A stretch of DNA of 64,000 nucleotides. Source: Escherichia coli (GTDB taxonomy: Bacteria; Pseudomonadota; Gammaproteobacteria; Enterobacterales; Enterobacteriaceae). The DNA is taken from NCBI RefSeq assembly GCF_044324785.1, contig NZ_CP172127.1. One strand, 5' to 3'. Every line of letters begins with the position of its first letter. The stretch's first letter is position 1. Below are positions 29,101 through 32,100 of this stretch, in pieces. The position numbers are program-made.

Positions 29101-32100
29101 CCGGACAACTACATCGGCTTATTTGAGACTGATTCCGGTTTTTTGCGCAGCGAACTGGCGATTAAAACCTGGATCCAACTGGCGAAGGAAGCGGGCTGTG
29201 CGCAGCTGTTCAACTGCCCGGTCACCGCAATTCGTCATGACGATGAGGGCGTAACTATTGAAACGGCTGACGGTGAGTATCAGGCGAAAAAAGCGATTGT
29301 CTGCGCGGGAACATGGGTAAAAGACCTGCTCCCGGAGCTGCCTGTCCAGCCCGTACGCAAAGTATTTGCCTGGTATCAGGCCGATGGTCGCTATAGCGTG
29401 AAGAATAAATTCCCAGCGTTTACCGGTGAACTGCCCAATGGCGATCAATATTATGGTTTCCCGGCAGAAAACGACGCGTTGAAGATTGGCAAACATAACG
29501 GAGGCCAGGTTATCCATTCAGCGGATGAACGTGTTCCGTTTGCGGAAGTGGTCAGCGATGGTTCGGAAGCCTTCCCGTTCTTGCGCAATGTATTGCCGGG
29601 TATCGGTTGCTGCCTGTACGGCGCTGCCTGCACCTATGATAATTCGCCTGACGAAGATTTTATTATCGATACCCTACCCGGCCACGATAATACACTGCTC
29701 ATTACCGGCCTGAGTGGGCACGGTTTTAAATTTGCGTCAGTTTTAGGGGAAATAGCTGCCGATTTTGCGCAAGACAAAAAAAGCGATTTTGATTTGACGC
29801 CATTCAGGCTTTCCCGCTTCCAATAATCATCATTACGGCCTCCAGAATGAGGCCGTTTTTACAGGAGTATTTAATGCGTCGGCTGTTGCACTATCTCATC
29901 AATAATATTCGCGAGCATCTGATGCTTTATCTTTTTCTCTGGGGATTGTTGGCAATTATGGATCTGATCTATGTGTTTTATTTTTAGTTTTCCGCACTGA
30001 CATAAACTGACAAATATTTAATCTCCCTTTCATTTAGCGTGAAAAATTGAATGAGATTCTTCCTGCTTCTACAGCACTCACCAGACATCTCTGATGCTGA
30101 ACCCACTAAACTTATGAAGATTCTTTCATTATTAATTCAAAATTATTGAAATAAAAATAAATATCATTCAATTTGTTATTTTTGTGTTGCAATTCATTCT
30201 CCGACACGCCATTTTCTTTCTCTCGCAAATTCGTTTTGGATGCACTTATGTCATTCACAAATACCCCTGAACGCTATGGTGTTATATCAGCGGCCTTACA
30301 TTGGCTAAGCGCAATTATTGTCTACGGCATGTTTGCTTTAGGTCTGTGGATGGTCACGCTCAGTTATTACGATGGCTGGTATCACAAAGCACCGGAACTG
30401 CATAAAAGCATCGGCATTTTGTTAATGATGGGGCTGGTTATTCGCGTTCTGTGGCGTGTCATATCTCCACCGCCGGGTCCGCTGCAAAGTTATTCATCCA
30501 TGACTCGTCTTGGCGCAAAGGCTGGACATCTCACATTGTACCTATTGCTGTTCGCCATCGGCATCAGCGGCTATCTGATCTCAACTGCCGATGGTAAACC
30601 GATCAGCGTTTTTGGCTGGTTTGACGTCCCCGCGACCCTTGCCGACGCTGGCGCACAGGCTGACTTTGCCGGTGCCCTGCATTTTTGGCTCGCGTGGAGC
30701 GTCGTAGTACTGTCCGTTATGCATGGATTTATGGCCCTGAAGCATCATTTCATCGATAAAGACGACACTCTGAAGCGCATGCTGGGAAAGTCGTCATCTG
30801 ACTATGGAGTATAAAAAATGAAAAAAAGCCTGCTTGGTTTAACCTTCGCTTCCCTGATGTTCTCTGCCGGTTCAGCGGTTGCCGCCGATTACAAAATTGA
30901 CAAAGAAGGTCAGCACGCCTTTGTTAACTTCCGCATCCAGCATCTTGGCTATAGCTGGTTATATGGCACCTTTAAAGATTTCGACGGTACTTTTACCTTT
31001 GATGAAAAAAATCCGGCTGCCGATAAAGTGAATGTGACAATTAACACCACCAGCGTCGATACTAATCACGCCGAACGCGATAAACATCTTCGCAGTGCAG
31101 ATTTCCTCAATACTGCAAAATATCCACTGGCAACATTCACCTCCACCAGCGTGAAGAAAGACGGTGACGAATTGGATATTACCGGCGATCTGACGCTGAA
31201 TGGCGTAACCAAACCCGTCACGCTGGAAGCGAAATTAATTGGTCAAGGCGACGATCCGTGGGGTGGTAAACGTGCAGGCTTCGAGGCCGAAGGCAAAATT
31301 AAGCTCAAGGACTTCAATATCAAAACAGATTTAGGTCCAGCTTCTCAGGAAGTGGATCTGATTATTTCAGTGGAAGGCGTACAGCAGAAGTAAGAGTGAA
31401 ATGTTGCCGGATGGCACGCATCCGGCAATGATATTTATTCTGTTGGATCAGGAATGCCCAGTGTTGTATTCAGACGTCCACGAGACTTATTAAAGATCTT
31501 ATTGCCATTTTCACGTCCTGCTCGACGGCGTCGCTGTTCTTCTGGCGGTAACGCGCTTTCTTCGCAGCAAATTTCACTACAACAACCTTTGTATTTTTCC
31601 GCACATACTGGACACTGAATAAACAGCAGGTGGCAGCCATCATTTTTACAGTTGGTATGGCTGTCGCACGGCGCACCGCACTGGTGGCAATGCGCGATAA
31701 TCTCATCAGAGATACGTTCGCCCATCCGCTCGTCAAAAACAAAATTTTTGCCAATAAAACGTACCGGTAAACCCTGCTCGCGCGCCTTGCGGGCGTATTC
31801 AATAATTCCGCCCTCGATATGCCAGACTTTATTGAATCCGTTATGTTTCATCCAGGCACTGGCTTTTTCACAACGAATGCCGCCGGTGCAGTACATGACG
31901 ATTTTTTTATCTTTATGTGCCTGCATCATCTCGACTGCTTTTGGCAACTGCTCACGGAAGGTATCTGCCGGAATTTCCAGCGCGTTTTCAAAGTGCCCCA
32001 CTTCATACTCATAGTGGTTACGCATGTCGATAAACAGTGCATCGGGATCGTCAAGCATGGCGTTCACTTCCGCCGCTTGCAAATACTCACCAACATTACT

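Follow-up and report, generated by a model that had tools for sequence, protein, structure and literature searches.

The 37-codon gene yceO between solA and yceJ in Escherichia coli: a conserved small protein with one predicted membrane helix and a probable start at the downstream ATG

We analyzed a stretch of 64,000 nucleotides (nt) from Escherichia coli (contig NZ_CP172127.1, assembly GCF_044324785.1; hereafter the window, numbered from its first letter) for a short open reading frame (ORF), yceO, which lies between solA and yceJ on the + strand and had been singled out in an earlier note made from the sequence alone. From the solA stop codon TAA (29824-29826), the sequence reads 5′ to 3′ tcatcatt, ACGGCCTC, cagaat, GAGGCCGT, tttt, ac, AGGAG and tattta, and reaches the ATG at 29874. 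The features of this part of the locus are as follows.

28708..29826, + strand: solA (N-methyl-L-tryptophan oxidase), the gene upstream, from which the yceO transcript probably comes (annotation, conserved adjacency)
29835..29860, + strand: GC-rich hairpin with a run of five T after solA, terminator-like, ending 13 nt 5′ of the yceO ATG (minimum free energy fold, covariation)
29847..29849, + strand: upstream in-frame ATG, the K-12 reference start (46-aa form), probably not the native start (K-12 annotation)
29863..29867, + strand: Shine-Dalgarno (SD) sequence AGGAG, followed by the 6-nt spacer tattta (29868-29873) and the ATG (29874-29876)
29874..29987, + strand: yceO coding sequence (CDS), 37 sense codons and a TAG stop (29985-29987) (sequence, RefSeq CDS, Pfam DUF2770)

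The earlier note had placed a 37-codon ORF named yceO behind AGGAG at a 6-nt spacing from ATG 29874, with its end at 29987. The SD sequence, spacing and start codon are exact in the sequence, the length and end are right, and the name agrees with the RefSeq name and coordinates, the PF10968 match and K-12 b1058. In the two RefSeq records opened, the CDS of 114 nt called by RefSeq and the Prokaryotic Genome Annotation Pipeline (PGAP) maps exactly to 29874-29987. The K-12 reference (NC_000913.3) annotates yceO (b1058) as 141 nt and 46 aa, from the upstream ATG. Pfam PF10968 (DUF2770) matches this 46-aa frame with 79.1 bits (cut-off 25, E = 2.4e-22), and profile positions 1-36 fall on residues 10-45, i.e. 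on the 37-aa form. A 471-nt query spanning yceO has matches in 5,424 of 5,426 complete E. coli genomes and is at least 80% covered in 5,410; among the 20 matches listed, the feature hit is a 'YceO family protein' or 'DUF2770 family protein' between solA and yceJ in 19, and the remaining one is a partial match that covers yceJ alone. The exact 37-aa and the exact 46-aa sequences are each found on at least 1000 public contigs, and a search of NCBIfam for the YceO protein returned no model. A ribosome-binding signal of this kind is rare: no more than ten AGGAG-N4-9-ATG sites occur on the two strands of the window, nine of which head ORFs of at least 37 codons.

With high confidence we identify the ORF at 29874-29987 as yceO (b1058), a true coding gene that belongs to the DUF2770/YceO family. 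The deposited YceO is identical in sequence and shares the solA-yceO-yceJ context; the K-12 record differs in giving 46 aa, where the comparison made here, Pfam and PGAP all favour 37. The gene is already catalogued, named, included in Pfam, annotated in RefSeq at these exact coordinates and studied among the small proteins of E. coli, and the only useful addition is the argument that the K-12 annotation over-extends the N-terminus. The earlier note had also described the gene as missed by the ORF track. This is plausible for a mechanical ORF list with its default of 60 aa, but at a setting of 20 aa the list does contain the 46-aa frame from ATG 29847.

To make the conservation test independent of the small ORF, we used solA as the anchor and fetched 56 loci, one genome per species, of which 54 (from about 20 enterobacterial genera) had sequence downstream of solA. 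A check for loss of the frame in relatives, as proposed in the earlier note, found it retained under purifying selection, with a yceO homologue of 37-39 residues directly after solA in 52 of the 54 loci. The genera with a homologue include Escherichia, Citrobacter, Salmonella, Intestinirhabdus, Pseudescherichia, Enterobacter, Kosakonia, Leclercia, Kluyvera, Yokenella, Pluralibacter, Pseudocitrobacter and Siccibacter; the two loci without one belong to an Enterobacter species and to Shimwellia. Variable sites at codon positions 1, 2 and 3 number 29, 18 and 36 of 36, and the mean pairwise proportions of nonsynonymous (pN) and synonymous (pS) differences in frame are 0.19 and 0.69. This contrast is gone in the shifted frames (pN/pS = 0.28/0.34 and 0.35/0.17). 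The ratio of nonsynonymous to synonymous substitution rates (dN/dS) of the homologues against the window sequence is mostly 0.07-0.17. Judged by these substitution patterns, the yceO frame is translated and under purifying selection in Enterobacteriaceae.

The sole frame-breaking allele is an in-frame stop in Salmonella arizonae. In Salmonella enterica subsp. arizonae CCUG 6322T (locus L029, 3660-3773) the homologue stops at the conserved Trp23 codon, and the diarizonae type strain (L030) is intact; the arizonae gene is possibly a pseudogene confined to that strain.

The DUF2770 family is narrow: when 1.84 billion representative proteins were searched with a profile, no more than 64 clusters scored E ≤ 0.001. 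Its most distant members lie in the context bssS-solA-(GerE-type regulator)-DUF2770-yceJ-yceI-trhO or, in one case, between unrelated genes. In loci L061-L066 the intervening gene between solA and the DUF2770 gene, at about 2223-2889, encodes a 209-aa GerE/LuxR-type regulator. In a word-indexed protein search, the hits to the 46-aa query were nearly all from Escherichia and Shigella, as if the gene were restricted to that genus. We dismissed this distribution, since the solA-anchored scan and the profile search showed it to be a limit of that search's sensitivity.

The conservation could in principle come from overlapping DNA or RNA signals, such as an element of the solA 3′ untranslated region or regulatory DNA of yceJ, with the ORF yielding no functional protein. 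The arizonae stop allele is consistent with this, as is the scarcity of the native protein: in a published study, bottom-up mass spectrometry (MS) of the wild type did not detect YceO (PMC12529367). The same study did detect YceO by top-down MS, and the chromosomally encoded protein with a sequential peptide affinity (SPA) tag by immunoblot, at a level at least 10,000-fold below that of the arabinose-induced plasmid (PMC12529367). Both the spread of variable sites over codon positions and the contrast of pN with pS are moreover specific to the yceO frame, its start codon, stop position and SD sequence are conserved, the ORF persists in loci without yceJ, and Rfam has no RNA family match in 28000-32000. 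Frame-specific selection and the published immunoblot already contradict the non-coding explanation, to which we give next to no credence.

The comparison across genera bears directly on the choice of start codon. The Met at 29874 has an aligned counterpart in every genus (ATG in 47 of 53 sequences, GTG in 5 and ATA in 1) and is the only start common to all of them, and a purine-rich SD-like motif (AGGAG, AGGAA, GGAG or GAGAA) precedes it at equal distance in nearly all relatives. The nine residues upstream are unconserved, many sequences are without any upstream in-frame start, and in 18 of the 53 an in-frame stop closes the extension within these nine codons. An NTG codon at the position of 29847 is confined to Escherichia and, by chance, one Kluyvera; cryptic Escherichia clades have TTG in place of the ATG. 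In the window, ATG 29847-29849 lies partly in the loop and partly in the 3′ arm of the hairpin, with no SD sequence upstream, and the residues 'MRPFL' of the long form are the 3′ arm and U-tract read as codons. Because the downstream Met is common to all genera, the extension is unconserved and often closed, and the upstream ATG lies in a hairpin without an SD sequence, translation in all likelihood starts at ATG 29874 behind AGGAG, not at ATG 29847.

The converse, that the native locus makes the 46-residue protein annotated in the K-12 reference and the 37-aa form is an annotation artefact, draws on the 141-nt yceO of NC_000913.3, on the wide deposition of the 46-aa sequence and on a 46-aa frame that is open, with NTG at the position of 29847, in all Escherichia loci. 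The loss of conservation outside Escherichia, the placement of ATG 29847 in a stable hairpin and the use of the 37-aa form by both Pfam and PGAP speak against it, and we regard it as improbable. An 11-residue peptide of the 46-aa form has been detected by MS, but its sole source was a plasmid on which a vector ribosome-binding site precedes the 46-aa ORF (PMC12529367), so it says nothing on the native start. One point does weigh against the start at 29874: a literature search for start-site data on yceO, initiation profiling included and supplements covered in part, found none. The native locus probably never yields the first nine residues of the 46-aa form, a point that matters for the design of targeted proteomics, tagging and complementation. 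Experiments based on K-12 use the 46-aa form, as in the synthetic peptide and plasmid constructs of PMC12529367.

According to the earlier note, ATG 29874 follows the solA terminator, which would lie between the solA stop codon and the yceO ribosome-binding site. The hairpin, formed by ACGGCCUC and GAGGCCGU (29835-29856), has an 8-bp stem (29835-29842 with 29849-29856), a 6-nt loop (29843-29848) and a run of five T (29856-29860). It is the dominant feature of the minimum free energy fold (z = -2.7; 2 of 200 shuffles fold as well). A GC-rich hairpin is found at this place in essentially every locus; in a 35-sequence alignment, 92% of the hairpin cells are paired, sliding the partner strand collapses the pairing, and double-change cells number 30 as against 9.7 ± 4.6 in shuffles, a value reached by 0 of 500. 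A conserved hairpin is present, but a canonical U-tract accompanies it only in Escherichia and Citrobacter; the tract of Kluyvera, Leclercia and others has only 3-4 U, and these are scattered. In E. coli the tract is five U of which the first can pair, and a simple terminator scan did not list the hairpin at 29835-29856, likely because the extended stem takes up the first T of the run and leaves four T in the tail window. Instead of a full stop, the solA hairpin may be a leaky terminator or may have a stabilising role. In Pseudocitrobacter (L042, L045) extra hairpins, long and very stable, are inserted in the solA-yceO spacer of about 130 nt, which folds at -47 to -52 kcal/mol; they resemble repetitive extragenic palindromic elements.

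On the + strand from 29076 to yceO, a crude consensus scan found no sigma-70-like site, though a non-consensus or alternative-sigma promoter inside solA could escape such a scan. It is somewhat more probable than not that yceO lacks a promoter of its own and depends for expression on solA transcripts that pass the conserved hairpin. The conservation of the hairpin-SD-ATG arrangement, with covariation, and the negative promoter scan speak for this. Read-through of a leaky hairpin would explain the very low level of YceO.

A short, very hydrophobic peptide at an extremely low native level is also what a type I toxin would look like, and YceO might be a membrane-damaging peptide silenced by the hairpin or by an antisense RNA; one minus-strand promoter-like site (30171 to 30142) is directed at yceO. 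YceO shares with the type I toxins (Ibs, Ldr, TisB, ShoB and Hok) its shortness, hydrophobicity and low level, but it differs from them in being single-copy, in a synteny fixed across about 20 genera, in its purifying selection as a core gene of the family and in that no antisense or antitoxin RNA was detected: Rfam has no antitoxin or small RNA match at E ≤ 1 in 28000-32000, and a single minus-strand promoter-like site compares with 2.5 expected by chance. Over-production of YceO from pBAD for MS and immunoblot was described without any toxicity being reported (PMC12529367). In two secondary sources (PMC8765455; PMC12997748), loss of yceO is reported to cause stress sensitivity, not relief, and yceO is listed among acid-stress small proteins. 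A toxin is thus unlikely, and we assign this explanation a very small probability.

One public sequence source labels the protein 'Small protein involved in biofilm formation and acid stress response', and the mentions of yceO in the other papers found are limited to screens and expression tables. The acid-stress listing reportedly goes back to a screen of bar-coded deletion mutants (Hobbs et al. 2010).

The 37 residues fall into two segments.

29874..29918, + strand: codons 1-15, basic/polar N-terminal segment, predicted cytoplasmic, with invariant N11, R13 and H15 (alignment A1, positive-inside rule)
29919..29984, + strand: codons 16-37, hydrophobic segment of 22 residues, predicted membrane-spanning, with invariant D30 (Kyte-Doolittle, AlphaFold2)

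Besides these four residues, M1 is invariant in alignment A1, and R3, L8, N10, E14, M17, Y19, L25, L26 and A27 are at least 90% conserved; the family pattern M-R-R...N-N-I-R-E-H...D in a protein of about 37 aa is present. The single transmembrane helix that the earlier note had predicted is supported by computation: Kyte-Doolittle hydropathy in a 19-residue window peaks at 2.15, over residues 16-34, and AlphaFold2 (26-sequence alignment) returns one continuous helix from residue 2 to 36 with a predicted local distance difference test score (pLDDT) of 93.8. On the other side stands a position-independent Hessa sum of about 0 kcal/mol for the best 19-residue window, which is borderline and not strongly favourable. 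A profile search of the Protein Data Bank (PDB) found no relative in any solved structure. The positive-inside rule (R2, R3 and R13, with no C-terminal tail) predicts an N-in/C-out topology without a periplasmic tail. With a cytoplasmic N-terminus and no such tail, specific contacts would be expected within the membrane or at its inner face.

As a tentative proposal, which we hold nearly but not quite as probable as its contrary, YceO may be a single-span inner-membrane protein that packs on a larger membrane protein and tunes its activity or stability. The basic N-terminus (residues 1-15, with invariant N11, R13 and H15) would lie on the cytoplasmic face and residues 16-37 would cross the membrane, with nothing left over in the periplasm; the intramembrane Asp30 and the NNxREH motif would pack against the partner, in the manner of AcrZ, MgtS, MgrB and PmrR, and the acid-stress and biofilm phenotypes would stem from this interaction. 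Like YceO, the small members of the pairs AcrZ-AcrB, MgtS-MgtA, MgrB-PhoQ and PmrR-LpxT have fewer than 50 aa and one predicted transmembrane helix, size and helix being the likenesses tested here. Conserved polar residues at the membrane boundary and stress-linked phenotypes are further traits that they have in common with it. They differ in that their sequences are unrelated, and the NNxREH motif and the invariant intramembrane Asp are not known from any of them. The remark in the earlier note that small membrane proteins are often regulatory is a generality. N11, R13, H15 and D30 are the obvious targets for mutagenesis aimed at the molecular function of YceO.

A more specific version, which we think improbable, would have the invariant intramembrane Asp30 and the cytoplasmic NNxREH motif form a pH- or cation-responsive single-helix switch on a putative membrane partner, with its dose set by read-through of the solA hairpin by RNA polymerase. 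If true, the hairpin-SD-ATG module would be an attenuator-like expression valve common to Enterobacteriaceae.

One candidate partner is the neighbouring cytochrome b561 homologue YceJ. YceO could be a dedicated accessory subunit of YceJ (with YceI), as CydX is of cytochrome bd: in about 38 loci, yceJ-yceI follows yceO on the same strand at a distance of about 260 nt, and no terminator-like site was found between yceO and yceJ. Respiratory complexes often include small single-span subunits. CydX, which may be compared together with CydH-type subunits, is likewise a single-span protein of 37 aa, and yceO adjoins a cytochrome b gene in many genomes. Unlike CydX, however, YceO is in no solved complex, and its gene is not tied to that of the supposed partner: 13 loci keep solA-yceO without yceJ-yceI at that place (Kluyvera, Yokenella, Pluralibacter, Pseudocitrobacter and E. 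albertii; yceJ elsewhere in those genomes was not searched for), and one Enterobacter has kept yceJ and lost yceO. The conserved promoter-like block and the repeat upstream of it (both described below) belong, besides, to yceJ itself. Because of the 13 loci with yceO alone and the one with yceJ alone, YceJ is unlikely to be an obligate partner, and a dedicated subunit of YceJ is in our view a distinctly poor prospect.

Where yceJ-yceI is missing, yceO is next to trhO. In Kluyvera, Yokenella, Pluralibacter and Pseudocitrobacter, the 3′ end of the convergent trhO follows yceO immediately; in Escherichia albertii NBRC 107761 (L007, past 3780), yceJ-yceI is deleted and yceO is followed by a spacer remnant and then the trhO 3′ end.

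The spacer between yceO and yceJ (29988-30247 in the window) varies little in length, 252-269 nt from Escherichia to Kosakonia. Its middle part is unconserved in sequence, and RNAalifold found no conserved pairs in the spacer. A 32-codon ORF within it (30051-30149) was dismissed as unconserved. A direct repeat, TGACA-N5-TGACA, lies at 29998-30012 on the + strand, 11 nt past the yceO stop, and is the sole match in the 64 kb (0.14 expected). The repeat is kept in nearly all loci with yceJ-yceI (no match in L026, L031 and L051), is present in three copies in the Enterobacter without yceO, and stands 230 nt upstream of yceJ in distant loci; it is absent from the Kluyvera-type loci without yceJ-yceI, and E. 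albertii retains a degenerate remnant. Since the repeat tracks the presence of yceJ-yceI, even without yceO, by its distribution it belongs to yceJ regulation, not to yceO. The other conserved islands of the spacer are an AT-rich block at about 30121-30165 and a promoter-like TTGCAA (30187-30192) separated by 17 nt from CATTTT (30210-30215), and they look like DNA signals.

In the set of solA loci, a 492-bp contig labelled Terrisporobacter petrolearius (L058) has 99% protein identity to E. coli solA and a coverage below 1x, and is almost certainly E. coli contamination of that assembly. Two other short ORFs in the window also stand behind a perfect AGGAG-ATG, at 34686 and 1961, both on the - strand and of 57 aa each. 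The ORF at 34686 would encode a charged coiled-coil-like peptide, and the one at 1961 resembles ribosomal protein L32 (rpmF).

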